Position numbers and translations under genes: made by a program. 64,000 bases of DNA, from IMG/VR virus record IMGVR_UViG_3300037760_000179, positions 29,708-93,707 of that record. The stretch is one strand, 5' to 3'. Source of the stretch: a virus. Of this stretch, positions 11,355 through 56,214 are shown piece after piece. The notes below the pieces were generated by a model. The model was not told where the DNA came from and ran no database searches. It was given only the letters and a program-made list of their open reading frames with translations. Each line of letters starts with the position of its first letter. The stretch's first letter is position 1.

Positions 11355-14300
11355 TCAGGTTCCCCTGCTGGCAAAGGCGTCGAGCACATCCGCGAGGCTG
11401 CTGGCGACGTCCGCCGCCTCCCGCGAGCCGTACGGGTTGCGCTGCTTGTCCCGCACCTCGTCAACGATCGCACGCAGTTTCGCCGACGCTGCGGCGAAGT
11501 CACCGGTTGCGTCGCCCTCGGCCAGGATCTGTTCGATCCGGGGCAGGTCAACCGAGTACCGGATCCGGTCGAAGTCTCTCTGGAACCGGCTGCGCACCCC
11601 GTCGAGCGGCTGCGGGACCCGCTGCCGGTAGTCATTCTCCAGCCGCCGGGCGGCGGACAGAGCGAACCGTCGCGCCTCGTAGCCGTTGTCCCTGGCCTCG
11701 GTCAGTCCGTACTCGCGTAGCCGTGCGGCGGTAGCCAGATCACGGTCCGGGTCGCTGCCGGCCCGCAGCATTTCGATGATCTCGTCTCGGTGCTGCGGGT
11801 CCAACCCAACCAGGGACATAGCGCCGAGCCCGTCGCCCCGGTACTGGCCCTGTAGCAGCGGCTCCCGCAGCCTTTCGGGCACACTGCGGTCGACTTTCGC
11901 CTTGACCGCGAGCATGTTCCACGTACCGCTCCGGTCCAGACCGGGAGTCTGCGCACGCAGCATGCCGACCACCTCGCCGACACCAGCCCCATCGGCCCTG
12001 CGCCACTCGGCCAGGTCGATGCCGGTGTTCCACGGGATGCCCGCCCCCTCGACGGCCTCGGCGAACGCTCTGGCTTCCTTCTGGGTGCGGAAACCGCTCA
12101 GAACTGGAGCGTTGCGCATGACACGCGGGACAACGATGTCGTAGCCGCTTCTACCCTTCATCACCAGCAGTTGGCCGCTCGGGGACAGCAAGCCCCACTT
12201 GGCCCCGGCGTCATCCGGAATCCGGTCCGCGAGCGCCTCGTCGGCCTCTAGCCACGCGGTCAACTCGCCGAGCCCCTGGAATCCCTCACCGGAGTCCAGC
12301 CGGGTCTTGATGTCGGCAAGTTCGGCGGCCTTCCTCGCCGCCGCCTTCTCCGCCGGATCCGTGGGCTCCGGCGTCTCGCCCCGCCGGGCCAGTTCCTGTT
12401 TGAGGTTCCGGTCGACCCGCATGAAGCGTTCCTGCGCCTGCTCCAGGGCGTCCTGGTCGCGGAACGGCCGACCCACCCGGGCGCGCAGTGCCTCAATGTC
12501 CTGGCGGGCCTCGCGGGTTCTGGCGACGTGGCGGGTGAGGGTCCTCTCCATGCGGCCGAGGGCGTTCTGAAGATCGCCGATGACGTCGGTCGAGTTGAGG
12601 TCGCCGCGGCGAACACTGACGGACCCGGGTACGCCGACCAGCTCGACGCTGAAGCCGGTTTCTGTCCGGCCGGCCCGCAGCGGGAACCCCCGAAACTCTC
12701 CGATCACGGTGGGCGCGTCGCGTGCTGTCCGGATCTGCTTGCGCAGCTGCTGCTGCGCCTCGGTCCGGTCCCGGTAGTCGGTGCCGCCGAGGGATATCTT
12801 GAACCTCTTGCCATCGACACGCTTGGGAAGCGCTTCGTTGATCTGGGCGATGGCCTGTTCGGACCGGGCGACGTCGGCCTCACCGTCGGTGATCCGCTTA
12901 GCGATGTTGCGCTGGTCAGCCTCGTGGTTACGCCGCGCCCGCTGCAACCGCGTCAGATCGGCGCTGGCGTCGGCGTGCTCGATCAGCCACCGGTTGCCGG
13001 TCCCGAGGGCGGTGACTTCCTGCGCGGTCAGCGCGAACTCGCCGACATCGTCCACCTCGCGCACATCCAGCCGGCCCCGCATGACCTGGTTGATGAACGT
13101 GCTCTTGGTCGTGATCGCCTGCCAGATGTACGCGTCGAACGACTGCTCGGTCACGTACCGGATGACCTCTACTTCGGGGTTCTTGTTGCCCTGCCTGACG
13201 ATGCGGCCGTCGCGCTGCTGCACGTCGACCGGCCGCCACGGCGCGTCCACATGGTGCAGCGCAACCGCCCGGTCCTGCACGTTGGTCCCGACGCCCATCT
13301 TGGCAGTGCTGCCGACCAGAACAGCCACCCGGCCGTCTCGGGCAGCGGCGAACAACTCGGCCTTCTCCTGGTCGGTGTTCGCCTCGTGGATGAACCGGAC
13401 CCTGTTGCGGGGGACGCCCCGCTCGACCAGCTTGTCCCGCAGCGCCTCGTAGGCGACGAAGTCGGCCAGGCCGCTACCAGCCTCGTCCTGGTCGGACCCG
13501 CTGGTCTTCTTCCTCTTGCCGCCGGGGGTGCCGATGTCGCTGAACACCAGTTGCAGCGCACCCGGGACGCCGACGGGGTTGCCGGCTCGGTCGGTGTACA
13601 CCGCATCCTTGTTCTTCTCGTAGATGGCCGCGATCTTGCCGGCGGCGACGTCCAGCTTCGTCGGCTCGGCGGTGTCGCGTCCCACCATCTGAAGGTCCAG
13701 CGCGGCGGCCCGCCCCTCGCCGGTGATCTTCAGCATGTTGTCGCCGCCCTTTTCGGGCGGGTACGGAATCGTCTTGGCGCGGGCGACCAGCTGCTCCATG
13801 AAGTCCAGCAGTTCCTGGCTGGGCGGCACCACCACGGTCTCCGGCGCCCGGGTACGGTTGCCGTCGGCGTCGACCCGCTCCACCAGGTCGGGAGTCTTGA
13901 CGATGTCCTTCAGGTCATCGGCGGTCTTCACGTCGGAGGCGACCAGCCACGGCCGCAGGAACTCCGGCAGGTTCACGAACTTCGCGAACCGGGAGTGCTG
14001 CCGCAGCCCGCCGGTCGGCGCGACCTCCAGCCTGGTGGTCATCTCGCCGAAGTTCGCCGCCCACTCGTCGAATGTCTCGACGCCCATGTCCTCAAGCAGG
14101 TCCGGACGCAGGTAACGCATCATCGTGTACGCCTCGGACACCGAGTTGGCGATCGGTGTCGCGGTGGCCAGCGTCGCCACCCGGTCGTTACGCGAACGCA
14201 GGTGGTGCAGCTTCATGTGCAGATCGGTGGCGATCTGACTGCCGGGAATGCCCAGGCCCTGAATGCCCGACGGGGTACGGAGGTTCTTGTAGGTGTGGGC

Positions 14301-17300
14301 CTCGTCCATGAACAGGTAGTCGATGCCGGTGCTCTCGAACGTCAGCCCCGGGTCCCGGTCGGTGCTGCCGACCTGGTCCTTGATGCGCTGCTCGGCCTTC
14401 TCGACCTGCCCCTCAAGCTCCTTGACGGTCGGGTCGTTGTCCAGCGCCTCCCCTACCAGCTTCCGAAGCGCCTCGTCGCTGGCGCCTTCGTTGTCGGCGC
14501 GGACCCTCTCCACCACCTGGGCGCGGCGCCTGGCGGCCGACCGCCGCAGCGGCTCAACCTCCCCCGCCAGGTAGTCCCGCTCGGTCTCGCTGGACACCGG
14601 AATCCGCTTGAACGCGCCCTGGGTGAGGATCACCGCGTCCCAGTCGCCGGTGGCTGCCTTGGCGACGATCTCGCGCCGCTTCTCGCCGCCCTTGTCGCCC
14701 TTCAGGTCGTCGGACCCGATCGCGAGCACACGCGCCTGCGGGTAGCGCTCCAGGAACTCGCTGGTCATCTGCTCCAGCATGTGGTTGGGCACGACGATGG
14801 CGGGCTTGCGCACCAGACCCAACCGGCGCATCTCCATCGCACCGATGACCATGGTGGTGGTCTTGCCGGACCCGACCTCGTGCCACAGGCCAACCGAGGG
14901 CTCGGCGATGATCCGCCGGACAGCCGCGCTGCGGTGCGGGAAGGCGTAGAAGCCGTCCCGGTTCAACCCTGGCAACTCCAGGTCCGAACCGTCGTACGAA
15001 CGCAGCACCAACGAGTTGAACCGGCGGTTGTACGTGTCCTGAAGGTCCCTCTGCCGGGTGGGGTCTTCCCACAGCCACTCGGCGAAGCGGTCTGCCATCT
15101 CCTGGGCCTTCGCCTGCGCCTGCTCGGTCTTGTCCCGGTTGAGCTTGCCGTCCTCGGTGACCCGGATCGGCTTCTGCCCCAGGATGTCCTCGGCGATGTC
15201 GACGCCGGACATCTCCCGGATGCCCCACTCGGTGGTCGCGGCGGTGCTCCGCTTGCGGTCCGACCTGACCTTCCAGGCGTTCGCGTGCGGACGCTCAACG
15301 GTCAGCGTCGGGTCCCGCAGGATCTCCCGCAGGAACTGCTGCACGTACGCCGGTTCGATCCACCCGGCGCCCATCTTGGCGTTGATGTCAACCGGGGTCA
15401 GGTCCGGCGGCAGGACCCGCTCCAACGCCTCCACGTTCGGCGCGAACGCGTCCGGGTCCTCGGCCGCAGCCAGGCGGGCCACGTCGAGCTTCTGCCGCAC
15501 GTTGCCTGACAGGTACTCGGCCGCCGGTGCGAGCCGGCCGCTACCTGGCTCGTCGAAGACCAACGTACCGAGACGGTCCCGGGCGGTCGGCTCGTCGACG
15601 TCGAGCAGGTCAGCGATGTGGGCCAGGTCGACCTCGCCGAGCTGGTCCACGGTGATCGCCAGCGCGTCTGCGGCGCTTTCCGCGCTGGTCCTGGGGGTGC
15701 GGGGGGCGATCGTGCGACGGTGGAAGATGTCGGTCTTGGTGGCGTTGCCCGTGAGCGGGTCGTAGTTCTCCAGGGCGCGCACCGCGGCCGAGAACGGGTC
15801 GCTGCGGAATCCGCCCTGCGGTGGGCGGGTGCGGGTGACCCGCTGCTCCTCAACGTCGTCCTCGTCCTCGCCGCCCTTCGGGGCGCGCCGCTTCTCCGTG
15901 AAGCGGCTGACCGGCCCCCACTTGGCGACGTAGCCGTCGTAGATCTCGTTGAGGTCTTCGCGGAGCCGCTTCATCTGCTCGGTGTCGTCGCCGCTGGAAG
16001 CCTCGGCGTTGACCAGGTCGATGCTGGTGTCGCGCAGCCGCAACAGCTCCCGCAGCTCCTCCCGCTGTGTCGCGGGAACCTCGTGCGGCTGCTCCACCCC
16101 GCGGGTGACACGGCTGAAGGTGCCGTCCGGGAGGGCACGCAGGAACCCCTCGGGCACACGGTCCGGCCCGGTTTCGGCGAACGCGGGACGCGGGCGCTGC
16201 CCGGGGGTCTGGGTCAGCCCCATCGCCTGAGCCCGTGAGACGACCTTGTCCAGCGCCTCCCTCAGCGCCGGCCCAGCGTCCGCGTCGCCGCGAACACCGA
16301 AGGCATCCTTTGGTCCGCTGCCCATGACCATCGTCCCGAGCACCATGTCGGGGTTGTCGAGGAAGTGCCCGTTGACCGACACTTCCCGGTCGTCGTCGCC
16401 GATGGTGATCTTCCGGGCAGCCTGGAACGGCAGCCCGGCATACGGCGTGTCGGGCTCGCGGCGGCGGAACACCAGCAGGTCGGTCACCACCGCCGTGCCG
16501 GCCGCCTTCTCGTGCGCCCGCGACGGCAGCCGCACCGCCCCGACGAGGTCAGCCAGTTCGGCCATTTCCTCCCGCGCGGCCGGGCTCATCGAGTCCATCG
16601 TGTACCGGGAGGTGATGAACGCCCCGATCCCGCCCGGGCGGGTCATCCGCAGCGACTTGAGGATGAAGTGGTTGTGCATGTTGTGACGGCGGCCCGGGTT
16701 GTACTCCGGGTCAACCAGCTTGGTGTCGGAGAACGGCACGTTGCCGATGGCGGCATCGAAGGCACCGTCGCGCGTCTTGGTGTCAGTGAACGACTCTGCC
16801 CGCACGTCCGCGTTCGGGTACAGGGCGGCCGCGATCGAGGCGGTGATCGGGTCCAGTTCCACCCCGGTCACGTGGGTGTCGGGTGCGACGTCCTCCGGCA
16901 CCATCCCCATGAACGTGCCCGACCCGCTGCCCGGCTCCAGCACCTCGCCGCCGTGGAAACCGAGGCCTCGCACGGCGTCCCAAATCGCGGCGACGTAGTC
17001 CGCGTCGGTGTAGTGCCCGGTGCGGGTCGTTCGCCGCGCCGCCGCGAACTCCTCCGGCGTGAGCAGGTCCTTCAGCTCGGCCTGCGCGTCGGCGAACCTG
17101 CCACGCGGGGGTGGCTCCTTGAACACGTTGGGCAGCGAACCCCACCCGGACCAGCGGGCCAGTTTCGCCTGGTCCTCAGCCGACGCCGGCCGGCCGGATT
17201 CTTGCAGGTCCCGCAGGGTCCGCAGCGCCACAAGGTTGGCGTCCAGCCGCTTGGTCGCCGTGTTCGGCGCGAGGTCGGCCTGACTGCGCGGGCGGAAAAC

Positions 17301-20243
17301 CTGGGTGGCGTCTACTCGCCAGTCTCGCCCTCCGGCGCCTCGTCGTCCTCCGCCCGGGGCAGCATCTCCGCCAGCACTTCCCGCTCCGCGGTCGGCCGGG
17401 CCGCCATCATCCGTTCCCACCGCTCCTGGAACGGCCGGTCCGCCGGGATCGTCTCCTCCAGCGCCTCCGCCCGGTCGAGTACCCGGGTCTCGATCTGTTC
17501 CCCCAGGTTCTGGAAGAACGTCTCCCGGCTGCTCATCTGGGCGTACTCCGCCGGCCGGTACTTCTGCCAGTGCGCCATCGCCATCCGGCCGTACTGATTC
17601 ATCCGAACCCGGCCCCCCTCTGTCGACCTCTGGCAGGACGGATCGTAGCAGCGCCTGGCCGATCTCCTCCCGCGTCGCCGATTTCGACACCTCGACTCCA
17701 CGGCGGACGGCGGTGCGGCGCAGCTGGTCCCCGCTGAACCCTTCCAGCGGGTCACCGGCCTGGTTACCGGCCTTCCAGGTCTCGATGCGGGCGGCCAACC
17801 GCTCGCGGAACTGGCCACCCTTGCCGCCTAGGGTGCCTTTAGGCCAGCGTGGATGGTGGTCAGCATTCCATGCCGCCTCGACGTCGCCATCGCCGTCGAG
17901 TTCGCCAGCCACGCGGGCCAGCGCCCACAGCAAGTCCTCGATGTCATCGTCGGCTGCGCCGTCCGCACTGTCAGCCCGGCGGCGGCGGCTGATCCGCGCC
18001 CGCAACTGGCCTCGGCAGCGGCTGCGCCCCTCGCACTGCCAGTACCGGCCCACCGGGTAGTCAGCCAGCGCCCCGGCCAGCGTCTCGTACACGGTGCCGT
18101 CGATCTCGCGGCACGGACCGCACGTGTTGGTGTCGTTGCGCTCGTCCGCCACCCACACCACCGGCACGCCCAGCGCCTGTAGCCCGCGGAACACCGCCGC
18201 ACGGCCCAGATGCACCGCAGCGTGCACAGCAGCTGCAAGCTCCCCGGCGACAAACCCCCGCGCCGCGCCGCGCTGCTGGGTGGTGGCGGTGGAAGTCAGA
18301 TCCTCGGCCGCCCGGGTGACCGCGGCGGCGGCGTCGTCGGGGTCGGCGTCGGGGCCGGCTGCCAACACGGCCCGGGCAGCGGCGGACGTGTAGCCGCCGA
18401 CGATCAGGTGGGCGGTGGCGTCGGCCAGCTGGTCCAGCCGTGCCGTGTCCACGTCGGGTAGGCCCGGGTCGGCCCCCTGTGCGGCGACCGCGGACCGGGC
18501 GGTGCGGGCCGACGTGGCGGCCACGTCACGTAGCTGCGCCCGCAGCCCACCGGCCACCGCCCCGACCAGGCTGGGGCCGACCGTCAGTGTCGCCAGGGTG
18601 GCGACGGTTCCGGCGGAGGCGGCTTCGGCTGCGGCCTGGGCCAGCGGCGGCACGATGGGCGCGGCCAGCAGCGGCCAGGCGGCCAGCAACGCCAGCAGCG
18701 CGGCGGACGAGTCTTCCTCGACCTGCCGCATCTCGTCCTCGGCCTGCTGCTGCTCGTCCTGTTCGGTCTGGGCGGCGACGAACAGGTCCGGCTGCTCGTA
18801 CCGCACCGGGCCGGGCGGTGCGGCAGCCTGCACCGGGCCGGATGGCGCCGGCTTGGGCTCAGGCCCGGGCGGGGTCGGCCCGGGTGCGGGACTGCCTCCG
18901 GCCGGCGGGTCCTGGCCGGGCACCTGCACCGGCCGACTGCGGTCCGGCGCCGGCAGCCGGTACTCTTTGCGGACCCACTCCTCCAGCCCCGGATCGGCTG
19001 ACAGGGCACCGGAGGCCAGCAGCAGCTGCAACGACTCGGCGGTCACCTCACGGCGTGAGGCGATCCCCGACGCCCACACCTTCGGCACCGGCTCGTCTTC
19101 GTCGTCCCAGTTCCACGCGACCAGCCGGGCGGCGACCTGCCGGGTCACCACGTCGGCGATCTCCTCAGCGATGGACTCCAGGGCCAGCGTCCAAGCGTCG
19201 ATGAACGCGACGCCCAGCGCCCTGTTGCCGGTGGCGGTCTGCCCGAGGTCGAGGTGGCCCATCAGCGCCATGGTGGACATCTGCTGGTCCAGCCACTTCA
19301 CGAAGCCCATCGTGTCCGGGGTGCCACCGGACAGGCCCACCAGCTCCAGCCACGCACCGGGTGGCATCGCCGCGCCGGCGGTGTCCCCGGCCCGGGCGGC
19401 AGAGGCCATCTGCTGCGCCTGGGTCATCTGCGCCGGGGTCGGTGACATCGACTCCGGCCAGCGGACCACCGGCACACCCATGCCGAACCGGCGGGAGGAG
19501 GTGGCGAGGACCCGCATCATCTCCCGCTTGAACAGCCACGGCGCGAACGCCGGCCTAAGCAGCGAGGTGCCGAACCAGGACGCGCCCTCACGTTCGTGGC
19601 AGTACCACGCCAGCCGGTCCGCGCCGATCTCCGGCTTGTCGAACGGCCCGGCTGCCATCTCCTGGGAGATGCCGGCGAACGTGCCCCGCCGGGGCTCCAC
19701 GTGGATCTGGGTGATGGTGTGCTGCGGCCGGTCCCACAGGCCGACCAGGTGCGCCCGCCCGTCGCCGCCGATCTTGGCCTCAAGCTCGAACCCGGCATGC
19801 CCGAACGGGAGCATCGTCAACGCCGAGCGGAGGTGGTCGTGCCACGACAGGCCGTGGGCCGTTCCCACACCCGGGTTGTCGCGGCCGATCACCGGCAGGT
19901 CCAGGTCGTGGGCCACCAGGTCGACCACCTCGCGGCGGCAGCCGGTGGCGTCGATCTGCCAGGTGGCACGCAGCAGCATGTGGCAGTAGCCGGCCAGCAC
20001 CGCCGCCAGCTTCGCATCCCGCCGCATCGCGTTGTAGGTGGTCACGGACTGGGGCCACGCCACGTCCGGTACGGTCTCCAGGGCGTCGACCAGCAGCCCC
20101 TCGTACGCCGAGTCCTCGACGTACCCGCGCAGCGACGTGGGCGGCTTGAACACCTTGGCGCCGTTGGCGTGGGCGGCCATGATGTCCGCCGGGTGCGCCA
20201 TCACCGTGGCGCCGTTGACCGGTCCGTCTGGCAGCGGGTCCAC
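11355..20243 (-). CDS. Portal (DUF935-like) - MuF-like - DarB-like N6-adenine MTase/SNF2 helicase fusion, 2962 aa
   Basis: Portal N-term (GTSLLRPAF.PW, RRFGMGVP); MuF Cys motifs (NDTNTCGPCREIDG, CEGRSRCRG); MTase EPGSGSG and GNVPF; helicase HEVGSGKT, DEAH, TATP, QRDGRIVRQGN; no internal stop. Confidence 0.9.
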   Translation of the reverse strand: MDPLPDGPVNGATVMAHPADIMAAHANGAKVFKPPTSLRGYVEDSAYEGLLVDALETVPDVAWPQSVTTYNAMRRDAKLAAVLAGYCHMLLRATWQIDATGCRREVVDLVAHDLDLPVIGRDNPGVGTAHGLSWHDHLRSALTMLPFGHAGFELEAKIGGDGRAHLVGLWDRPQHTITQIHVEPRRGTFAGISQEMAAGPFDKPEIGADRLAWYCHEREGASWFGTSLLRPAFAPWLFKREMMRVLATSSRRFGMGVPVVRWPESMSPTPAQMTQAQQMASAARAGDTAGAAMPPGAWLELVGLSGGTPDTMGFVKWLDQQMSTMALMGHLDLGQTATGNRALGVAFIDAWTLALESIAEEIADVVTRQVAARLVAWNWDDEDEPVPKVWASGIASRREVTAESLQLLLASGALSADPGLEEWVRKEYRLPAPDRSRPVQVPGQDPPAGGSPAPGPTPPGPEPKPAPSGPVQAAAPPGPVRYEQPDLFVAAQTEQDEQQQAEDEMRQVEEDSSAALLALLAAWPLLAAPIVPPLAQAAAEAASAGTVATLATLTVGPSLVGAVAGGLRAQLRDVAATSARTARSAVAAQGADPGLPDVDTARLDQLADATAHLIVGGYTSAAARAVLAAGPDADPDDAAAAVTRAAEDLTSTATTQQRGAARGFVAGELAAAVHAAVHLGRAAVFRGLQALGVPVVWVADERNDTNTCGPCREIDGTVYETLAGALADYPVGRYWQCEGRSRCRGQLRARISRRRRADSADGAADDDIEDLLWALARVAGELDGDGDVEAAWNADHHPRWPKGTLGGKGGQFRERLAARIETWKAGNQAGDPLEGFSGDQLRRTAVRRGVEVSKSATREEIGQALLRSVLPEVDRGGPGSDESVRPDGDGALAEVPAGGVRPDEQPGDVLPEPGGTDRDPGTRPGGGAGGDDPGGPAVPGAVGTDDGGPADRGAGSAGGDAAPGGGRRGAGGRDWRVDATQVFRPRSQADLAPNTATKRLDANLVALRTLRDLQESGRPASAEDQAKLARWSGWGSLPNVFKEPPPRGRFADAQAELKDLLTPEEFAAARRTTRTGHYTDADYVAAIWDAVRGLGFHGGEVLEPGSGSGTFMGMVPEDVAPDTHVTGVELDPITASIAAALYPNADVRAESFTDTKTRDGAFDAAIGNVPFSDTKLVDPEYNPGRRHNMHNHFILKSLRMTRPGGIGAFITSRYTMDSMSPAAREEMAELADLVGAVRLPSRAHEKAAGTAVVTDLLVFRRREPDTPYAGLPFQAARKITIGDDDREVSVNGHFLDNPDMVLGTMVMGSGPKDAFGVRGDADAGPALREALDKVVSRAQAMGLTQTPGQRPRPAFAETGPDRVPEGFLRALPDGTFSRVTRGVEQPHEVPATQREELRELLRLRDTSIDLVNAEASSGDDTEQMKRLREDLNEIYDGYVAKWGPVSRFTEKRRAPKGGEDEDDVEEQRVTRTRPPQGGFRSDPFSAAVRALENYDPLTGNATKTDIFHRRTIAPRTPRTSAESAADALAITVDQLGEVDLAHIADLLDVDEPTARDRLGTLVFDEPGSGRLAPAAEYLSGNVRQKLDVARLAAAEDPDAFAPNVEALERVLPPDLTPVDINAKMGAGWIEPAYVQQFLREILRDPTLTVERPHANAWKVRSDRKRSTAATTEWGIREMSGVDIAEDILGQKPIRVTEDGKLNRDKTEQAQAKAQEMADRFAEWLWEDPTRQRDLQDTYNRRFNSLVLRSYDGSDLELPGLNRDGFYAFPHRSAAVRRIIAEPSVGLWHEVGSGKTTTMVIGAMEMRRLGLVRKPAIVVPNHMLEQMTSEFLERYPQARVLAIGSDDLKGDKGGEKRREIVAKAATGDWDAVILTQGAFKRIPVSSETERDYLAGEVEPLRRSAARRRAQVVERVRADNEGASDEALRKLVGEALDNDPTVKELEGQVEKAEQRIKDQVGSTDRDPGLTFESTGIDYLFMDEAHTYKNLRTPSGIQGLGIPGSQIATDLHMKLHHLRSRNDRVATLATATPIANSVSEAYTMMRYLRPDLLEDMGVETFDEWAANFGEMTTRLEVAPTGGLRQHSRFAKFVNLPEFLRPWLVASDVKTADDLKDIVKTPDLVERVDADGNRTRAPETVVVPPSQELLDFMEQLVARAKTIPYPPEKGGDNMLKITGEGRAAALDLQMVGRDTAEPTKLDVAAGKIAAIYEKNKDAVYTDRAGNPVGVPGALQLVFSDIGTPGGKRKKTSGSDQDEAGSGLADFVAYEALRDKLVERGVPRNRVRFIHEANTDQEKAELFAAARDGRVAVLVGSTAKMGVGTNVQDRAVALHHVDAPWRPVDVQQRDGRIVRQGNKNPEVEVIRYVTEQSFDAYIWQAITTKSTFINQVMRGRLDVREVDDVGEFALTAQEVTALGTGNRWLIEHADASADLTRLQRARRNHEADQRNIAKRITDGEADVARSEQAIAQINEALPKRVDGKRFKISLGGTDYRDRTEAQQQLRKQIRTARDAPTVIGEFRGFPLRAGRTETGFSVELVGVPGSVSVRRGDLNSTDVIGDLQNALGRMERTLTRHVARTREARQDIEALRARVGRPFRDQDALEQAQERFMRVDRNLKQELARRGETPEPTDPAEKAAARKAAELADIKTRLDSGEGFQGLGELTAWLEADEALADRIPDDAGAKWGLLSPSGQLLVMKGRSGYDIVVPRVMRNAPVLSGFRTQKEARAFAEAVEGAGIPWNTGIDLAEWRRADGAGVGEVVGMLRAQTPGLDRSGTWNMLAVKAKVDRSVPERLREPLLQGQYRGDGLGAMSLVGLDPQHRDEIIEMLRAGSDPDRDLATAARLREYGLTEARDNGYEARRFALSAARRLENDYRQRVPQPLDGVRSRFQRDFDRIRYSVDLPRIEQILAEGDATGDFAAASAKLRAIVDEVRDKQRNPYGSREAADVASSLADVLDAFASRGT
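17312..17602 (-). CDS. Nested out-of-frame gene, TnpV-like helical protein (96 aa)
   Basis: GAGGGGG RBS, ATG at 17602, high GC3 codon usage. MNQYGRMAMAHWQKYRPAEY...FFQNLGEQI...AEREVLAEML resembles TnpV-like proteins. Confidence 0.75.
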   Translation of the reverse strand: MNQYGRMAMAHWQKYRPAEYAQMSSRETFFQNLGEQIETRVLDRAEALEETIPADRPFQERWERMMAARPTAEREVLAEMLPRAEDDEAPEGETGE

Positions 20244-26287: not shown

Positions 26288-26379
26288 GGGGAGCCACCTC
26301 CCTTCGGGGGGAAAGGGTGAAGCCCCGGCCCGCTTTCGAGGCGTACGACCGGGGCTCCATGCAACTTCCAACGGCTGCG

Positions 26380-26453
26380 TGGCGGTGACGGGATTTGAAC
26401 CCGTGTCCTTCGGGTTATGAGCCCGACGAGCTACCGAACTGCTCCACACCGCT
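26380..26453 (-). tRNA. tRNA-Met(CAT), initiator type
   Basis: Full cloverleaf; anticodon stem GGG/CCC; 1:72 mismatch; GGTTCAAATCC T-arm; no encoded CCA. Confidence 0.93.
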
Positions 26454-30740: not shown

Positions 30741-31118
30741 TCAGGCTGCATCGTCGCCGCCCTCGGCCGGTCGAAGGTCCGCCAACGGGCAGCCGAACTG
30801 GCCCCCACCGAGGTCCACCATCGCCCACCCGTCGTCGTCGATCGACACGATCGGACCGGGCTCGGCGTAGAGCCGGACAGCCGACCCGTAGCCAGGATGG
30901 CCCGGCTTGAGTCGGTTCGGCACGAACACCAGCGACCCGACGGCCAGGGTCTCCACGGCCCGGCGGGCGATGCCGTCGGCGGCACGCAGCTCGGTCTCGT
31001 TGGCGCGTCCCTGCCGGCGCAGCTTGTCCGGGTCGGCGGTGCCGTACCGGTCGATCAGGGTCTCGCGGGCAAGCTCGAACGCGTCCTTCTTGCGGGTCTG
31101 TTCAGGCATGGCTCCCAT
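30741..31118 (-). CDS. Hypothetical protein
   Basis: Coupled ORF downstream of the recombinase. Confidence 0.55.
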   Translation of the reverse strand: MGAMPEQTRKKDAFELARETLIDRYGTADPDKLRRQGRANETELRAADGIARRAVETLAVGSLVFVPNRLKPGHPGYGSAVRLYAEPGPIVSIDDDGWAMVDLGGGQFGCPLADLRPAEGGDDAA

Positions 31119-32217
31119 CCTCCCGTACTCGAGCGCCCGCTTCCGCCACCGCAGCGGCTACCAGATAGGCCGGATCGGTATCCAAGGTCAGCTTCGCCCG
31201 GTCGTAGCCCTGCGTGGTGCGTGGGTCCTTGTGACCCAGGGCGTGCTGGCGGGCTTCGAGGGAAGCGCCGGCAACTCGGGCGGTGGTGGCCCAGGCGTGG
31301 CGGAACGAGTGCGGGGTGATCTTCGCCGCTGAGGGTATGCCGGCCGCTCGAGCGGCGCGGCGGACGAACCGGTACACGGCGTGCCGGTCCAGCGGCCGGC
31401 CACTCGAGTCGACGAACAGCGGCGCGGCCGGGTCGTCCCGGCCGGGGCGGGCCTCGAGCATGGCGTCGATCGCGGCCACCGCGGCCGGGGGGAGGGGGCG
31501 GGTGCGTCTCCGGCCGCCCTTCATCCGCTCGAGCCGCAGCACCCGGTGACCGTCGGCGTAGCCCAGGTCCTCGAGGCGGGCCAGGCACAGCTCCGTCACT
31601 CGAGCGCCGAGGGCCACCATGGTCTCGGCCAGGGCGGTCGCGCACAGCGGGCCGAGCGGCTCGTCCGCTCGAGCAGCAGCAACGATCGCGGCGGCTTCGG
31701 CTGCGGAGAACCCGACGGTGGTGGTGTCGTCGCGGTCCACCCTCGGCCGGTCGGCACCGCCGACCGGGTTGGTGGCGACGGCCTCGAGGCGGACCAGGAA
31801 GGTGTACCAGCTCGAGACGGACGACAGCCGCCGGGCCACGGTGCTGGGGGAGAGCCCGGCAGCCTCGATGTTGCGGGCGAACTTGTTGACGTGGGTGAAT
31901 CTTGCTTCGAGCGGACGCAGCCCGGTCGACTCGCACCACGTCAGGTAGCCCTCGAGGTCACGCCGGTACGCGAGGCGGGTCAGTTCCGACAGGCGGCGGT
32001 TCGCCAGCCATCGGTCGGTGAACTCGAGCAGCTCCGGGATGGTTGCCAGGACGCCGGGCGGTGCGATGCGCTCGGGGTCTGCTCCCCCATCCAACCCCGA
32101 GAACGCATATGCGTCATTATGCGCTAGATCATCTTGGGTGGAGGGGAGTACCTCGTCGGGCTCGAGGACGACAGGATACTGACCGTTATCCTGCACTTGA
32201 TCTAGCCGGACGGTCAC
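31102..32217 (-). CDS. Tyrosine recombinase (XerC/D-like)
   Basis: SAM-like N domain (TRLAYRRDL); catalytic R (GARVTEL), KGG, HSFRH, LGH..PRTTQGY; start uncertain. Confidence 0.92.
   Translation of the reverse strand: MTVRLDQVQDNGQYPVVLEPDEVLPSTQDDLAHNDAYAFSGLDGGADPERIAPPGVLATIPELLEFTDRWLANRRLSELTRLAYRRDLEGYLTWCESTGLRPLEARFTHVNKFARNIEAAGLSPSTVARRLSSVSSWYTFLVRLEAVATNPVGGADRPRVDRDDTTTVGFSAAEAAAIVAAARADEPLGPLCATALAETMVALGARVTELCLARLEDLGYADGHRVLRLERMKGGRRRTRPLPPAAVAAIDAMLEARPGRDDPAAPLFVDSSGRPLDRHAVYRFVRRAARAAGIPSAAKITPHSFRHAWATTARVAGASLEARQHALGHKDPRTTQGYDRAKLTLDTDPAYLVAAAVAEAGARVREDGSHA
32100..32127. promoter_or_regulatory. dif-like 11-6-11 site
   Basis: AGAACGCATAT-GCGTCA-TTATGCGCTAG. Confidence 0.55.
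32169..32196. promoter_or_regulatory. Second dif-like 11-6-11 site
   Basis: CGACAGGATAC-TGACCG-TTATCCTGCAC. Confidence 0.5.
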
Positions 32218-32441
32218 GACGGCCTCGCATCCATCCGGTCCGAAGCCTCCACGAACACGTCGCACGGCCACGGCAGATTGCACCGCACACACCACGGCAT
32301 CACGCCGCCCGGCCACTCGGCGATGTCGTCCGTCGGTACCGGCTCGGCTCCGTGCGCGTCCATCACCGCCGAGTCGGCTCGGCCAGCGATCAGGTCGGGC
32401 AGGTCCCGCAGGAACGCCCACAGATCACGCAGCAGGTTCAT
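32214..32441 (-). CDS. Small CxxC/WPC protein (paralog of 34310-34546)
   Basis: PWCVRCNLPWPC. Confidence 0.6.
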   Translation of the reverse strand: MNLLRDLWAFLRDLPDLIAGRADSAVMDAHGAEPVPTDDIAEWPGGVMPWCVRCNLPWPCDVFVEASDRMDARPS

Positions 32442-39639: not shown

Positions 39640-39872
39640 GTCCCCTCGCTCCCTTCGTTGATCTCGTCTGTCTCCATCAACTCCGTGAGCCCGTCCAATA
39701 CGGGCTCACCTCCCCCGCCGGTCCTCACCGGTGACCGCACCCGGGGTTTGGGTGCGAGCACCAGCCCCAGCCGGGAAGCGCACACCCGGCCGAGTCCGAC
39801 GGCACACCAGCGTGGGTCGGACAGCACTCGGCGGCAGCGGTTGCACCGCGGCGGCGGGTCGGTGGCGGTCAT
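39636..39872 (-). CDS. DUF6011-like Zn-binding protein
   Basis: CNRCRRVLSDP...GLGRVC. Confidence 0.7.
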   Translation of the reverse strand: MTATDPPPRCNRCRRVLSDPRWCAVGLGRVCASRLGLVLAPKPRVRSPVRTGGGGEPVLDGLTELMETDEINEGSEGT

Positions 39873-41602
39873 GGCACACCTGCGCCCTCCCCCATTAGCG
39901 TCGGACTCACGGTCAGCTCACCCCGGCCGGACGCCAACTCCAGTGACCGCAGCCGCGACAGGGAGTTGCGGAACCCGCCCGAACCCGCGGAGTAACCGGT
40001 TGCGTCGGCGATCTCCGGCACCGGCACGGCCGCCGGGTACCGATCCACCAGCACGTCGAGGATGGCCCGCTCCGCCTTGCCCAGGTGGTGGGCCTTCCAC
40101 CAGTCGACCAGCGCCCGACCGACCGGCAGCGGGTCGTAAGCGCCCAGCGCGTCCAGCCCGGCTGCGGTGATAACGACGTCGCCACGGCCTTCGATCAGCC
40201 CGGCGGAACGCAGCGCGGACAGGCTGTTGCGGTAGCCGCCGGAGGTGTGGGAGTAGCCGGTCAGCAGCGCAACCTGGGTGACGGTGCGGGTGCCGTGCTG
40301 CGCCAGGGCGGTCAGGATGGCCCGCTGCGCCTTCGGCAGGCTCCGGTCCCCCGGGCCAGCGGTAGGTGCCGGCTGTGGCGCGGGCGCCGGCCGGCAGGGC
40401 GTCGGCGCCGGACGTGGAGCCGGCGGTGGGGTGGGCGACTGGCCGGCTGCGGCGATCGCCTCCACCGTCGGACCCAGCCGCTCCAACGCCGCGGTGATCT
40501 GCTCGTGCATCTCCCGCGCCGCCAGGTCCAGGTGGTCCCGGACCGCGGTCAGCTGGCCGCCGGCCTCCCGCAGCTCGGCCAGGTTCGCGTCGGTGAGCAC
40601 CGGCACCTCGACCCGCTGCGGCTCCGGCTGGTCGGCCTTCGCCGCGGCGAGCTGCCGCTCCAGTTCGGCGATCCGCGCCCGCAACGCCCGCGGGTCCTCC
40701 GCCTTGGCCCGTTCCACGGTGGCGGCGATCTGCTCCCCCAGCGCCGCCAGGTCCACCGCGGCCATCCGCTGCGGCAGCACCCGCCGCTCACCCGGCCGCG
40801 GAGTGGCGTGTGAGTCAAACGTGCGGATCGGGCGGATCTTCGACCGAAGCAGCAGCCGCAGCCAGCCCGGCGACCACACCCACGCCTCACCGGTCTCCAG
40901 ACTCGACAGGGTGGAGATCACCGCTCGGATCTCCTCCGGCTCGCTGGCGTGGTCATCGATCCAGTCGTTGATCGCCTTGCGGGTCTTCGGCCCGGTCACC
41001 CGCAGCACCACCAGCGTCTCCATCAGGTCCAGCACCGTCTTGGACACGTCCGCGGCCCGCTGCGAGATCACCGTCATACCCAGCCCGCGGCCACGGCCCC
41101 GCTTGGCCACGTCCTCCATCGCCCCGAGCAGCCGGGCCACGTCGGCGCTGGCCCGCTGTGGGATCAGCACGTCCGCCTCGTCAACTACCACGTGCAGCGG
41201 GTCACGGTTGAGCCGGTACACCTCCTCGGCGAAGTCTGTGGTGAACGCGCGCGCCTTCGTCTTGCTCATCACCGACAGGTCCAGCACCGCCAGCTGCCGG
41301 GTCTCGACCAGCACCTTGGCGAGCAGCCGCCCGGCGGTCGGCTCCAGCGGCACGTCGGCATGGTCCCCACCGAAGATCACAAACGGCAGGCCATCGCTCT
41401 TGCCGCTGGCCGAGGAACGCAGCCCCCACCAGTCGCCCTTGATGTCCAGCACCACCACCGGCTGACCGGCCGAGGCCAACTCCTCCACGAAAACCCGGGC
41501 TGTGCTCGACTTCCCGGCGCCACGGTTAGCCAGGATCGCCACCGTCTCGGTGACCGCCTCGATCGGCAAGGTCAGACCCGGCCCCAGCTTGATCTCGCTC
41601 AT
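39869..41602 (-). CDS. HerA/FtsK-like (DUF87) ATPase with C-terminal winged helices
   Basis: ANRGAGKS, VVVDEAD, GRGRG, ISQR; two C-term repeats SGG.RNSLS.LRS; ATG at 41602. Confidence 0.8.
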   Translation of the reverse strand: MSEIKLGPGLTLPIEAVTETVAILANRGAGKSSTARVFVEELASAGQPVVVLDIKGDWWGLRSSASGKSDGLPFVIFGGDHADVPLEPTAGRLLAKVLVETRQLAVLDLSVMSKTKARAFTTDFAEEVYRLNRDPLHVVVDEADVLIPQRASADVARLLGAMEDVAKRGRGRGLGMTVISQRAADVSKTVLDLMETLVVLRVTGPKTRKAINDWIDDHASEPEEIRAVISTLSSLETGEAWVWSPGWLRLLLRSKIRPIRTFDSHATPRPGERRVLPQRMAAVDLAALGEQIAATVERAKAEDPRALRARIAELERQLAAAKADQPEPQRVEVPVLTDANLAELREAGGQLTAVRDHLDLAAREMHEQITAALERLGPTVEAIAAAGQSPTPPPAPRPAPTPCRPAPAPQPAPTAGPGDRSLPKAQRAILTALAQHGTRTVTQVALLTGYSHTSGGYRNSLSALRSAGLIEGRGDVVITAAGLDALGAYDPLPVGRALVDWWKAHHLGKAERAILDVLVDRYPAAVPVPEIADATGYSAGSGGFRNSLSRLRSLELASGRGELTVSPTLMGEGAGVP

Positions 41603-42030
41603 GACCCCTCCTGCGGGTTCCAGAACTCGTCGTCGGCGTCCCTCGGGTCGTGCCACACCAGCGACCGGGAAGCGCCGATCAGCCCGGCCAGGGACCGGGT
41701 GTCCTCGGCCGGCAGCCTCAGCACCGCCACCGGCTCGTCCGGGTTCCCCTGCCAGAACACCGACAGCTGCACCCCGTGCCGCTTCACCCCGCCGCCGTAC
41801 GGGTAGATCGACGCCCGCAGCACGTCCCCGGTGTGCGGGTCCTCCACCTCCAGGGCGTCCGGCGGGTACAGCCGCCCCGGTCGGGAGATCGCCACGACAA
41901 CCCGGCCGGTGACGGTCCAGCCGGCCATCAGCGTCCGCCGGCCGTACTCGTCCCCGCCGAGCTGGACCGGCAGCAGCGTCCGCCAGCCGTGCCAGTACCA
42001 CTCCGGCCCGTAGCACCACACCCTGTTCAC
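41599..42030 (-). CDS. Hypothetical protein
   Basis: Coupled ORF. Confidence 0.55.
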   Translation of the reverse strand: MNRVWCYGPEWYWHGWRTLLPVQLGGDEYGRRTLMAGWTVTGRVVVAISRPGRLYPPDALEVEDPHTGDVLRASIYPYGGGVKRHGVQLSVFWQGNPDEPVAVLRLPAEDTRSLAGLIGASRSLVWHDPRDADDEFWNPQEGS

Positions 42031-43025
42031 CGATCGCTCCCCTTGCTTGCCTCGGTCGCTCTTTCCTGGATCGCAGCCCGCGCAGCTGCGGCGCCGCGGG
42101 CGGCGTTGCCGGTCCGGCTCGGGTCGTGGCCGCATGCCCGGCCACTGGGCAGGTAGCCCTCTGGGTCGCACAGGTCGCAGTTCCCGATCTCGACCCGCCG
42201 CAGCTCGGCCCGCTCCCGGGCGGCAGCGGACCGGCGGACAGCGTCGGATCGCGCCTGCCCCGCCTCCCATTGCTGGCGGAGGCGGCGGGCGTCGCCGCAC
42301 GGCCCGCAAGGGCCGTCGGCGGGCGCCATGAGGTGCTGGGGGCAGCGCTCTTGTGGGGGGTCCGAGCCTTCGGCCCTACTAGGGTGAGTTACTTCCCCAC
42401 CTGTACCACTGATTGGGGTGGGGTGGGGTGGGGTGGGGGGATTCGGAGTCGCATCGGACCCATCGTCGGAGGTGCGATCGGAGGTGCGATCGGTATCCGA
42501 CACACGTTTCCGGTGCTCATCGGCAACGGCGCTACTCGCCTGCCGCTCACCCGTGGCACCCCCCTCCGATCCTGCCGGGATCGGAGGTGCGATCGGCCGC
42601 GATCCGTTGCGGCGGCGGGTCCGATCGGTATCCGATGAGCAGAACGCGCACCCTGGATCGGTGACACCGCGGGCGGCGTGCCACCGCCGGTGGTTCCCCA
42701 GGGCGCCCCCGGACGACTTCTTCTCGCGCATCGCAGAGACCTCCGACTTGCTGATGTTCCTGTGGGAACCATCGCCGTCGGCATGCCACTGGTGAAACCG
42801 GTAGCCCGCCTTCGTCCGCCTCCACAGCCCAACGGCCACCAGCTCGTCCGCTAGCTCGGTCGCGCCGCGGGACAGTGACGGGATCATGTGCGCAGGAACA
42901 TCGCCATCGGTGAGATGTTCGTTCGCCCACGACCCCGCCAGCGCCCACAGCCCGATCGCGGCCAGCGACACGGCTGCCGTCTTGGGATGCGAGTGGAATC
43001 GGTCGTCCACCGGAAAGAACGGCAC
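42027..43025 (-). CDS. Phage replication initiator protein
   Basis: FPVDDRFHSHPK..AIGLW..AGSW..TDG..LVAVGLW; internal iterons; C-term Cys motifs; AAGGGAGG RBS. Confidence 0.8.
   Translation of the reverse strand: MPFFPVDDRFHSHPKTAAVSLAAIGLWALAGSWANEHLTDGDVPAHMIPSLSRGATELADELVAVGLWRRTKAGYRFHQWHADGDGSHRNISKSEVSAMREKKSSGGALGNHRRWHAARGVTDPGCAFCSSDTDRTRRRNGSRPIAPPIPAGSEGGATGERQASSAVADEHRKRVSDTDRTSDRTSDDGSDATPNPPTPPHPTPISGTGGEVTHPSRAEGSDPPQERCPQHLMAPADGPCGPCGDARRLRQQWEAGQARSDAVRRSAAARERAELRRVEIGNCDLCDPEGYLPSGRACGHDPSRTGNAARGAAAARAAIQERATEASKGSDR
42466..42635. repeat. Iterons (putative replication origin)
   Basis: TCGGAGGTGCGA at 42466, 42478 and 42581; GATCGGTATCCGA twice. Confidence 0.65.
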
Positions 43026-43066: not shown

Positions 43067-44269
43067 TCAGAACGGCGGTTCTCCCGACCGCCACGGGTCA
43101 TCCCAGTCGGGTTCCAACTCCTCGTGCTTGCTGACGACCATCGGCGAGCCGTCGACCTTCCACGTAAACGGCTCCTTCATCGCCTGCCGGAGGTGCTCCA
43201 GGCACCAGCTGATGTGGCCCTCACAGTCCCGCGTACGGAGCACGCCAAGCTGGACCTCCAGCTCCTCGTACCGCTTCGCCTCCTCGTCGGTCAGGTCACG
43301 ACTCTCCGCGCCGTCAATGATGGTCCGCAGCTGCGCAAGAACCTCCTGGCTCTCGTCCCAGCGTCGGCAGATCCGGCAGTTGTCGAACCACACCCTGGCC
43401 GCCGCCTTGCTGGGACAGGCAACGCTGAAGCGGCCACGCTTACTGCACATCGAAGCTGCTGGGCCGTACCGCCTGCCGCCCTTGCGGTGGCGGGCATAGC
43501 TGGCAGCCTCCGTTGCCACCTGCCACCATCGAGCCTTGGGCTTCTCCATGAAGACTCGTGCGGCCTCGATCCACTCGCCGCGTTCGTCCTCGGGCAACTC
43601 GCCCAGGTACTGCGAGGCGAACTCCGCAGCGACGAACCGGGCCGAACGCTCAAGAAGCTCCAGCTCGGTCCACGTCACGTCGAAGGAGACTTCTTCATCC
43701 TTGGCCCGTTCGCGGCAACGATCGACCTGATCCTGCGGTAGTTGGTTCAGCAGGTGCTCCAGTGCCCGCCGCACGGCAAAGGCGGCGCCGGACAACTCGA
43801 TAGCGGCCACCTCTGTGGCGTAGACCACCTCGTCCGCACCCACCAGCCCATCGTCGGGCTCCGCCGCAGCGATCTCCTGACGCGCCTTGTCCAGCCACTC
43901 CTCGTACTCCTCCGGTCCACTGCACTGAACGTGGAGCAGGTGGTCGGCATAGTCCCGCTTGGAGCCGACGGCCGTGCGGATGAGGTCAGCGCTGCTGGAC
44001 ACAAGCTGGTTGTGCGTTGAGTTGTAGAGCGGCCCCTCCTCCTTGATGGCCCGCTCCTCGGCGGCGAGGGCGGCCGAGCGCGACTCGAACTGCTCAACGC
44101 TGATGTGGTGGACCTCCACCCACCATGGCTTGTCTTTCTGGTGCTGGCCGACGCGTGCTGGCAGGTCCATGGTGATCCCGACGTACAGCAGCACGTCCGT
44201 CCGGTCGAAAAACCGGTACAGGGCGTGCGGCTTGCCGGGCAGCCCCACGAGCGCCTTACTGACCTGCAT
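43067..44269 (-). CDS. GIY-YIG nuclease domain protein
   Basis: ALYRFFD..LLYVGIT...R..QH...AE..AI..E.P.YN. Confidence 0.8.
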   Translation of the reverse strand: MQVSKALVGLPGKPHALYRFFDRTDVLLYVGITMDLPARVGQHQKDKPWWVEVHHISVEQFESRSAALAAEERAIKEEGPLYNSTHNQLVSSSADLIRTAVGSKRDYADHLLHVQCSGPEEYEEWLDKARQEIAAAEPDDGLVGADEVVYATEVAAIELSGAAFAVRRALEHLLNQLPQDQVDRCRERAKDEEVSFDVTWTELELLERSARFVAAEFASQYLGELPEDERGEWIEAARVFMEKPKARWWQVATEAASYARHRKGGRRYGPAASMCSKRGRFSVACPSKAAARVWFDNCRICRRWDESQEVLAQLRTIIDGAESRDLTDEEAKRYEELEVQLGVLRTRDCEGHISWCLEHLRQAMKEPFTWKVDGSPMVVSKHEELEPDWDDPWRSGEPPF

Positions 44270-47670: not shown

Positions 47671-48207
47671 TCAGGCACGGGGTTCTCCGATCACGTAGAC
47701 GTAAATGACAGCGCCGGGACGGTCGAGCGCCTGGGCGTGCTCACCCGGGTACGCCTTCGCCTGATCGCCGTCGACGATCTGGGCGTCGTCGCCGAGCACC
47801 CGGCCCATGGCAAGCTCGGGCCGCTTCGACGAGATGGCGTCCTCAACCGCCCGCACGTAGTGCGACAGGTCCGGTCGGGTGGCCGGCCAGGTCCGCTCAC
47901 CCTTCGGCGCGCCCTTCGGCTTGGGCACGGTGAAGTACGCCGACAGCGCCACCGGGCCGGCGACCGGGAACGTGTAGGGCCGGCCGATCCGCCGCGCCTC
48001 CACCATGGCGTTGTGGGCAGCGGCGGCCACCAGATGCCGCCACGGGAGCAGCTGTTCCTGGTTCTGGTGCACCGCCGGCCGGCCCTTGCCTAGGTGCCGT
48101 ACCGCGCCCTGCGGTACCGGCGTGCCGTACACCTGGAACGACACCACCGGGCCGTAGCGGGTGTACCAGCCGACATCGGTGCGGGCGAGCAGGTCCCGGC
48201 CGCTCAT
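47671..48207 (-). CDS. rusA: RusA-like Holliday junction resolvase
   Basis: GTPVPQG, RPDLS...RAVEDA, DDAQIV. Confidence 0.85.
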   Translation of the reverse strand: MSGRDLLARTDVGWYTRYGPVVSFQVYGTPVPQGAVRHLGKGRPAVHQNQEQLLPWRHLVAAAAHNAMVEARRIGRPYTFPVAGPVALSAYFTVPKPKGAPKGERTWPATRPDLSHYVRAVEDAISSKRPELAMGRVLGDDAQIVDGDQAKAYPGEHAQALDRPGAVIYVYVIGEPRA

Positions 48208-48470
48208 GCCGATGCCACCCGCCGCTTGAGCCGGCGGCGTTCGCGCTCGGACAGCCCACCCCAGATTCCGAAACGCTCGTCGTGGTCGAGCGCATACTCA
48301 AGGCATTCGTACCTGACCTCGCAGCGGTTGCAAATCCGCTTCGCCTCCCGGGTCGAGCCCCCCTTCTCCGGGTAAAACGCCTCCGGGTCGGTCTGCGAGC
48401 AGAGCGCCCGCTCCTGCCACTTCGGCGTGTTGTCCAGCAGGTCGACCCCGACCGTACGACCGTCCATCAC
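48204..48470 (-). CDS. whiB: WhiB-family Fe-S transcription factor (WhiB/WhiB2-like)
   Basis: ALCSQTDPEAFYPEKGGSTREAKRIC..C.V..ECL..GIWGGLSERERR. Confidence 0.95.
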   Translation of the reverse strand: MMDGRTVGVDLLDNTPKWQERALCSQTDPEAFYPEKGGSTREAKRICNRCEVRYECLEYALDHDERFGIWGGLSERERRRLKRRVASA

Positions 48471-55194: not shown

Positions 55195-56214
55195 GCCACC
55201 CCCGCAAGCCGGGCGGCTATCACCTCAGCGTCAGGAAGCTCCACCGTCACCACACCGCCCGGCGACGGTGCCGGCGCCTGCGCCCGCTCGCCGGCCGTGG
55301 CGATCCCGGCGCGGCACAGCTCGCACCACCGGTAGTTCGGGTTGTCCAGCACGTCCGCCCGCGGCCAGCCGATGCCCGGCTGCTCGACAAGCTCACGCGG
55401 CCATGCCATCCCGTCGTGGCCGTAGAGGGTGCTCGTGTCGTTCCCGTCCCGGTCGCGGGCGCCGCCGGGTATCCAGGTCCACACCCGGCCGAGGGCGTCG
55501 GTGATGTCGGGGTGCTCGGCGACCTCCAGCTCGGCGATGACCGTCCGGAGCGCCTGCCACTCGGTGACGAGTGTGGAGGCGACCCGGCGGCCTTCCGCGA
55601 TCGTCCGGCGGTCCGCCTCGGTGAGTCGGCTAGCCATGGTTCACATCCCGGTGCGGCATCGCCCCGGCATCGCCGTCCACCACCCGCAGCGGGGTCATAG
55701 TTCCGCCGATGCACTCCCCCCGGCCGTCCGGGTCGGGGTGGCGGTTCACCATCCCACCGGCGTTCAGCGACCGGGGTTTCCCGCAGCCACGGCACTCGCC
55801 GCTGCCCGGGGCCGGCGGGTCGGGGCGGCGGTAGCCGGCGTTCAGCAGGTGCGCGGCCAGCTCCTCCGGGGTGGCGTCGGCAGGCGCGTCCCGGATCACC
55901 TCGGCCAGCCCGGCAACGGCGGCCTGGTCCACCTCGTCGCACCCGTCCACTGTGCTGCGCTCCGGCGTGTCAGCCACGGTCGGCTCCTTTCTTCGCCTTG
56001 CCCCTGCTGCGCCATCCGGCGTGTACCGGGTGGCGGCGGCGGCCCGCATAGTTCCGGTCGAGGCGGTCCATGTCGTCGGTGTCGGCCAGCAGCGGCCGGC
56101 TGTCCCGTTCGTCGCCGGCGTGGCGGTGGTGGTCGGCGAGCGCCCAGCAGCCGATCGCGAACAGGGCCGCGCCGAGCAGGACCCCGGCCACGCACAGCAG
56201 CGTCCACACCCCGC

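Follow-up and report, generated by a model that had tools for sequence, protein, structure and literature searches.

All CTCGAG palindromes of a high-G+C phage genome lie within a single Xer-like tyrosine recombinase gene

Avoidance of restriction sites is among the oldest signatures of the arms race between phages and their hosts. It is documented in phage genomes (Sharp 1986; Rocha 2001; Rusinov 2018; reviewed in PMC8410138), and a 2021 review of non-translational selection on codon usage found that the motifs of restriction-modification (R-M) systems, unlike most motifs, had been reported as avoided only and never as enriched (PMC8410138). Here we describe the distribution of the hexamer CTCGAG, the site of XhoI/PaeR7I-type enzymes, in the IMG/VR virus record IMGVR_UViG_3300037760_000179 (93,707 bp, 72% G+C, CheckV completeness of ~99%), of which bases 29708-93707 constitute the 64-kb stretch analyzed here and termed the window below. 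As in restriction-site avoidance, 92 kb of this genome are purged of CTCGAG by codon choice (e.g., CTT-GAG in place of CTC-GAG), but, unlike it, one gene, encoding an Xer-like tyrosine recombinase, is near-saturated with the avoided site. No precedent for the local enrichment of a restriction site was found in full-text literature searches.

Clusters of methylation sites that gate DNA transactions are known for GATC in Escherichia coli oriC (SeqA), at P1 pac and at the ends of IS10 and Tn5. Such clusters span ~100-250 bp, are largely non-coding or regulatory, and are built from a motif that is common elsewhere in the genome; P1 additionally places a recombinase and a lox site near pac. The CTCGAG array shares with them the presence of many short palindromes at one locus beside a site-specific DNA reaction. 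On the other hand, the palindrome is an established methyltransferase (MTase) target in those systems, whereas the array described here occupies a whole coding sequence (CDS) of 1.1 kb, consists of a motif absent elsewhere, and has no known cognate MTase. The stoperators of cluster A mycobacteriophages, clt/TRS and KOPS are 8-13 bp long, asymmetric and orientation-biased, and are either distributed genome-wide or packed in ~100 bp. They resemble the CTCGAG array in comprising many copies of a short motif, some of them within genes, for which one protein is, or in the present case would be, the reader. The motif found here, however, is a palindrome of 6 bp and is restricted to a single gene. 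Finally, plasmid-living phages commonly carry Xer-like recombinases for dimer resolution (PMC8026635), and in the single-recombinase modules XerS/difSL and XerH/difH (PMC8026635) an Xer-like recombinase is linked to a dif-like site of the 8-6-8 layout, as is the case here. The difference is that the core in this phage lies inside the 5' coding region of the recombinase gene itself, and none of the Xer/dif modules has been described with a restriction-site array.

An exact search recovered 13 copies of CTCGAG in the window, all of which fell within the 1.1-kb recombinase gene (Table 1), and none in the remaining 29.7 kb of the record, so that the genome total is 13. Outside the gene (92.4 kb) no copy was observed, whereas base composition predicts 30 and Markov models of second and fourth order predict 23 and 20, respectively. 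The probability of all 13 copies landing in the recombinase gene is P = 1e-23 (binomial). CTCGAG was the sole hexamer with strong clustering in the genome (13/13 copies in 1.3 kb; 3/6 for the runner-up). The initial annotation, made from the sequence by eye, had listed the same 13 sites and none elsewhere, and its estimate of roughly 0.3 copies per kb agrees with our expectation from base composition. Exact counts, Markov expectations and the binomial test together rule out chance or base composition as the origin of the array. The array is thus real, highly non-random and, as seen in the related phage treated below, evolutionarily conserved.

The sites are spaced irregularly, at 28-219 bp, and their flanking bases are not conserved. 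The enriched motif was exactly the CTCGAG hexamer in a k-mer enrichment analysis, which, together with the absence of flank conservation, rules out a wider or narrower true motif. The limits of the array are those of the gene: the adjoining genes hold positions capable of carrying the site, all of which are unused.

Seven of the 13 sites are CTC-GAG (Leu-Glu), four are GCT-CGA-Gxx (Ala-Arg) and two are xxC-TCG-AGy (Ser-Ser), which means that the sites are spread over all three codon phases. Both GCT and CGA in the four Ala-Arg sites are rare codons, as had been pointed out for several sites in the initial annotation. When synonymous codons were redrawn from the genome usage with the protein fixed, the gene carried 1.47 sites on average and 6 at most, and permutation of its own synonymous codons raised these values to 3.1 and 9, respectively; the observed 13 was never reached in the latter (20,000 trials each). 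These two null models rule out a Leu-Glu-rich protein composition as the cause. Among the positions at which CTCGAG is synonymously possible, 13 of 18 are used in the recombinase gene, as opposed to none of the 455 found in the remaining predicted genes (62.6 kb). The bias is specific to the context of the sites. Leu before Glu is encoded by CTC in 9/9 cases versus 6/29 elsewhere in the gene (P=3e-5), and the rare CGA appears in 5/6 site-capable contexts versus 1/35 elsewhere (P=5e-5), while CTG is the main Leu codon of the gene except before Glu. Outside the site codons, the G+C content at third codon positions (GC3) is 0.86, as in the rest of the phage. At the 74 Leu-Glu pairs encoded by the other genes, CTC-GAG does not occur, against ~11 instances expected, and the rare CTT-GAG is used in excess, which indicates that CTCGAG is counterselected everywhere but in the recombinase gene. 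Altogether, it is well supported that CTCGAG is selected for inside the recombinase gene and actively selected against in all other genes. Both halves of this statement had been proposed in the initial annotation, and they are borne out by the context-specific rare codons, the synonymous nulls falling below 13, the array in the related phage and the unused positions elsewhere.

Several other palindromes are also strongly avoided across the genome, namely CTGCAG (0 copies), GGGCCC (3 copies against 44-200 expected), AGGCCT (1 copy) and GAGCTC (3 copies). The recombinase gene itself contains none of the four, and is therefore not simply exempt from avoidance. The record of the related phage avoids CTGCAG and GAGCTC as well, but not GGGCCC (13 sites).

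The related phage is the viral contig IMGVR_UViG_3300009852_000010 (L001 hereafter), a record of 30.9 kb that is ~33% complete. It encodes a recombinase orthologue with 74% amino acid identity, and 8 of the 9 CTCGAG sites of the record are inside this gene. A count of 8 was reached in 1 of 20,000 permutations of the orthologue's own codons. The other genes compared between the two phages are 36-67% identical (TerL, ~36%; the gene at the TerS position, 58%; another gene, 67%). The comparison of site positions identified 7 that are shared, 6 found only in the window and 1 found only in L001. Some of the differences require two synonymous changes into rare codons (e.g., GCC-CGC versus GCT-CGA), and others require amino acid changes (e.g., LG to LE, AA to SS). 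The closest protein relatives include P0003 (85% identity), P0004 and P0007-P0011, with P0010 encoded on a Nonomuraea recticatena chromosome. In the closest clade of the recombinase (P0002-P0005 and P0007), 7-10 Leu-Glu dipeptides were counted per protein, whereas the 107 other homologues averaged 2.2 and did not exceed 5. This excess indicates that the amino acid sequence itself has moved toward contexts capable of carrying the site. These comparisons show that the recombinase CDS became near-saturated with CTCGAG via synonymous and some amino acid changes.

Beyond this pair, no relative with more than 57% identity was found in phage, plasmid and host-genome collections. The homologues with identities of 57% or below, comprising those of 7 viral contigs, 3 metagenome contigs, a Micromonospora locus (L002) and 14 chromosomal xer genes, possess 0-2 CTCGAG each and no island of other palindromes; several of the viral contigs carrying such homologues are likewise without any CTCGAG. 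The clustering in orthologues that the initial annotation had suggested looking for is present in L001, and an array as a general trait of Xer-like recombinase genes is ruled out. A survey of 64 palindromic hexamers in 108 loci of at least 8 kb detected palindrome islands in this genome and L001 only, by which a generic statistical artefact is ruled out as well. Two dense clusters of a different appearance were noticed on other contigs. One comprises 14 CTCGAG in 0.7 kb with recurring spacings of 24 and 56 bp (L130:2547-3226) and looks like palindrome-bearing tandem repeats, and the other comprises 7 AGCGCT in 72 bp (L204:6865-6937), which also look like tandem repeats, unlike the irregular in-gene array. 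The conservation of the array is seen in two DNA sequences of the clade, namely those of this phage and L001.

Table 1. Features of the recombinase locus and other phage genes discussed in the text (positions in the window).
Feature	Position	Strand	Remarks
Array of 13 CTCGAG palindromes	31128..32166		Exact search; every CTCGAG of the genome
CTCGAG starts	31128, 31347, 31403, 31453, 31528, 31570, 31599, 31668, 31783, 31811, 31951, 32023, 32161
Xer-like tyrosine recombinase CDS	31102..32196	minus	Stop codon at 31102-31104; probable GTG start at 32196
dif-like 8-6-8 core, GCGCATAA-TGACGC-ATATGCGT	32103..32124	minus	In the 5' coding region; encodes A-H-N-D-A-Y-A
Short inverted repeat, CAGGATA-N8-TATCCTG	32172..32193	minus	Start of the gene; read from the sequence
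C5-cytosine MTase	56215-57468	minus
Beta-class N6/N4 MTase	61761-62813	minus
Eco57I/TaqI-like MTase domain	11355-20243	minus	Amino acids ~1100-1220 of a portal-SNF2 fusion open reading frame (ORF) of 2962 amino acids
HerA/FtsK-like ATPase	39869-42145	minus	758 amino acids; C-terminal winged helix
GIY-YIG protein	43067-44269	minus	400 amino acids; N-terminal GIY-YIG nuclease domain
ECF-type sigma factor	61009-61764	minus
WhiB-family regulator	48204-48470	minus
Multidomain ORF	5704-11052	minus	1782 amino acids
tRNA-Met (CAT)	26379-26453	minus

The product of the array-bearing gene matched Phage_integrase (PF00589; 2e-24) and Phage_int_SAM_1 (PF02899; 2e-12) above the Pfam cut-offs, in the layout of a C-terminal catalytic domain and a SAM-like N-terminal core-binding domain. 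The catalytic residues R165, K192, H262, R265, H288 and Y297 (R, K, HxxR, H and Y; numbering of P0002) are invariant in 10 relatives. The long ORF extends over 31102-32421 on the minus strand, and the gene call in the database begins at a TTG near 32094. Over the first ~85 codons of the long ORF, GC3 is low, and the orthologues begin near a conserved peptide, EPxEIL; thus, the real start of the CDS is likely downstream of 32421, probably at the GTG given in Table 1. The scores against the NCBIfam equivalog models were well below the cut-offs (144.7 versus 329.6 bits for XerD; 134.8 versus 335 for XerC), and the chromosomal Xer proteins of Micromonosporaceae-type genomes were at best 48-57% identical to the recombinase. 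Although the protein resembles XerD and XerC, these two observations speak against a bona fide orthologue of either. Between this phage and L001 the gene has been under constraint (dN/dS of 0.30 with a dS of 0.59), and, judging from its sequence, it is intact and functional. Both phages carry the recombinase gene upstream of their terminase genes. The genes neighboring the recombinase gene matched domains of unknown function or nothing. The sole tRNA gene of the phage, tRNA-Met (CAT), is located between the recombinase region and the terminase genes.

The initial annotation had placed the array next to dif-like sites. One conserved dif-like site was found, albeit inside the 5' coding region of the gene rather than beside it (Table 1). 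Its counterpart in L001, GCGCATAA-TTCCGC-TTATGCAT, is at ~3480-3500 of that record. At this core, the rare A/T-ending codons for His, Asn and Tyr are retained in both phages, and the peptide HNxxYA is conserved in P0003-P0007. One Micromonospora genome possesses a single site matching CATAA-N6-TTATG, ATGCATAA-GGCATA-TTATGCAT, which is its candidate chromosomal dif. The dif-like core of the phage resembles this candidate, suggesting that the module is an Xer/dif-type recombinase linked to its own predicted site; besides dimer resolution, it may serve in integration or cyclization. If the core were attP, integration would split the recombinase gene. The single Micromonospora site has perfect inverted arms, TCATGCATAA-GGCATA-TTATGCATGA, and is located at L231:1498-1525 (G002:C33, ~55513-55540). 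The short inverted repeat at the start of the recombinase gene is not conserved in L001.

The initial annotation had suggested that the gene may be an epigenetic or restriction sensor, a decoy array, or a binding array for recombination at adjacent dif-like sites; the sequence data are compatible with each of these roles and single out none. The exact palindrome, the lack of flank conservation, the irregular spacing and the use of three codon phases point to recognition of double-stranded DNA by an enzyme of the type II R-M kind, and not by a transcription factor, a centromere protein or the machinery of translation. We infer that the array works at the DNA level and that its reader would be a protein that recognizes exactly the 6-bp palindrome, whatever the flanking bases. 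The reader may be an XhoI/PaeR7I-type endonuclease or its MTase, the same agent that would drive the avoidance elsewhere. As a single cut inactivates an unmodified phage genome, a site-free 92 kb would be pointless unless recognition within the gene were prevented, tolerated or useful, and both the avoidance and the array have been kept in two anciently diverged lineages. Thus, we tentatively favor, at somewhat less than an even chance, the proposal that the array is a selected cis-acting element that serves as the only R-M-visible address of the genome and couples the function of the recombinase to CTCGAG-specific methylation or cleavage. The recombination/lysogeny module would be dispensable for lytic growth and the sole part of the genome exposed to R-M, and a CTCGAG-specific activity of the host or the phage would densely methylate or cleave this module alone. 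The outcome, which could be either methyl-marking or breakage by a host- or phage-encoded enzyme, would tie integration, cyclization or the resolution of multimers at the dif-like site within the gene to the R-M status of the present host or of the preceding one.

Several observations weigh against this proposal. No reader enzyme of the array was identified. The XhoI family of endonucleases (PF04555) had no match in the phage genome, and a phage-encoded enzyme of this family is thereby ruled out. The phage encodes three MTases (Table 1), whose specificities are not readable from the sequence. The host is inferred to be of actinomycete type from homologues only. In favor of the proposal, PF04555 was found in 23 of 301 genomes sampled from the likely host family, that of Micromonospora, and in 0 of 14 controls (one of the 23 genomes, G140, is unpublished, and this count is the only result that depends on it). 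A site-free phage would seem fitter under restriction, and the benefit of being visible is conjectural. Sites are retained at 7 of the 10 positions with unchanged amino acids, which is not clearly above the ~50% expected from neutral decay, and the case for ongoing selection, as opposed to ancient saturation, comes mainly from the lineage-specific sites in the two clade sequences.

The most serious competitor, which we consider unlikely but worth pursuing, is a binding array for a phage-encoded DNA-binding protein outside R-M, for which the otherwise absent hexamer would be a unique address. The candidate binders are the HerA/FtsK-like winged-helix ATPase, a winged helix-turn-helix (wHTH) regulator, a ParB/Srx-like virion protein and the small terminase. 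Such an array might load a translocase beside the dif-like site in the manner of KOPS or clt, provide accessory sites that control Xer-type recombination, or act as a centromere, an early/late transcriptional roadblock or a methylation-gated packaging site like P1 pac. Coding DNA with embedded arrays of short motifs has precedents in parS, KOPS and clt, and in the clustering of GATC at oriC and P1 pac. In the phage, the sites surround the conserved dif-like core, proteins of suitable types are encoded (the HerA/FtsK-like ATPase, wHTH proteins and the three MTases), and both phages have the recombinase gene upstream of the terminase genes, with the 58% identical gene at the TerS position. The form of the array argues otherwise. 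A 6-bp palindrome that is unphased over 1 kb is unlike the sites of HTH or winged-helix proteins, which are 12-16 bp long or 8 bp and polar, and it does not resemble the compact form of centromeres or of pac sites either. Moreover, the array fills the gene exactly instead of centering on the dif-like core, and a binding function leaves unexplained why the hexamer belongs to the small set of restriction sites purged elsewhere. What would mark a protein-binding array, namely a motif of at least 8 bp with conserved flanks or orientation bias together with a cognate binder, was not found.

There is a poor chance that the array is a functionless relic, in which the gene would have been imported recently from a genome rich in CTCGAG or formerly under selection for it, and purging would be incomplete. 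There are viral contigs that carry CTCGAG at 4-7 per kb over their whole length, the recombinase behaves as a mobile module (74% identical between phages whose other genes are 36-67% identical), and the retention of sites between the two copies fits neutral decay from a saturated ancestor. However, the CTCGAG-rich contigs use CTC as the main Leu codon, have predominantly phase-0 sites and contain no homologue of the recombinase, whereas in the recombinase gene CTC and CGA are specific to the sites and the remaining codon usage is native-like. Permuting the gene's own codons never produced 13 sites, and the homologues of 57% identity or below, chromosomal as well as viral, are poor in them. In addition, the two copies diverged anciently, as seen in their dS, have lineage-specific sites each, and reside in genomes with 0-1 CTCGAG elsewhere. 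Codon usage of a donor genome, one of the two ways in which the initial annotation had envisaged that its proposal could fail, is therefore ruled out, and the other, a normal density of the hexamer elsewhere, is contradicted by the absence of any copy outside the gene. High-GC contigs such as L122, L139, L156, L187, L197 and L206, among others, carry 4-7 CTCGAG per kb, and nearly every Leu-Glu pair in them is an XhoI site.

A role at the RNA level has a very poor chance. Thirteen self-complementary CUCGAG sequences could render the mRNA unusually structured, unstable or a target of a sequence-specific RNase, and thereby keep recombinase expression low or transient. The predicted minimum free energy (MFE) of the native CDS is -542.6 kcal/mol against -521 +/- 7.5 for the permutations (z = -2.9), and 60 of the 78 site bases pair with another site in the predicted MFE structure. 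Nevertheless, added structure is an automatic by-product of any repeated palindrome, and pairing would allow compensatory variants, yet the exact hexamer alone is enriched. The sites use rare codons and all three codon phases, and a role in RNA would leave it to coincidence that the repeated hexamer is a classical restriction site, one which the other 92 kb strictly avoid. We see hardly any chance for a trap or safe harbor that channels the insertions of a CTCGAG-targeting mobile element, or the cuts of a homing endonuclease, into a dispensable gene: palindromes can indeed come under selection as insertion targets of transposons in addition to restriction sites (PMC8410138), and a gene for a GIY-YIG endonuclease-like protein is present in a low-GC patch of the phage, but no insertion, footprint or element was seen at any site in either phage, no element with a preference for CTCGAG was identified, and avoidance plus a trap is more complex than avoidance alone.

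Returning to the array as an R-M-visible address, the proposal may be extended to temperate phages of actinomycetes, and perhaps others, which would keep their recombination module as the single address visible to R-M, with the R-M status of the host or a phage MTase gating the recombinase through the array, which would be a programmed site of hypersensitivity or hyper-methylation. We regard this extension as possible but on the unlikely side. If it were true, a previously undescribed layer would link R-M to lysogeny, cyclization or the maintenance of plasmid-prophages. The findings imply either that recognition by R-M is useful to the phage at one locus or that a purged hexamer serves as a private address for another protein, and either implication points to an undescribed layer of control on phage recombination or lysogeny. 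The array offers a directly testable system, and suggests a simple genome-wide search for motifs that cluster in a single gene and are missing from the rest of the genome, by which further cases could be found.

Some of the other phage genes deserve a brief description. The HerA/FtsK-like ATPase is a possible DNA translocase and could cooperate with the Xer-like recombinase. The GIY-YIG protein, encoded in a patch of lower GC (0.68), looks like a free-standing homing endonuclease. An ECF-type sigma factor gene is at the start of a long leftward gene train, and a gene for a WhiB-family regulator lies in the early region. Finally, in the ORF of 1782 amino acids a Mu-like prohead protease is joined with a eukaryotic-type topoisomerase IB and with a domain of the 2H phosphoesterase type.

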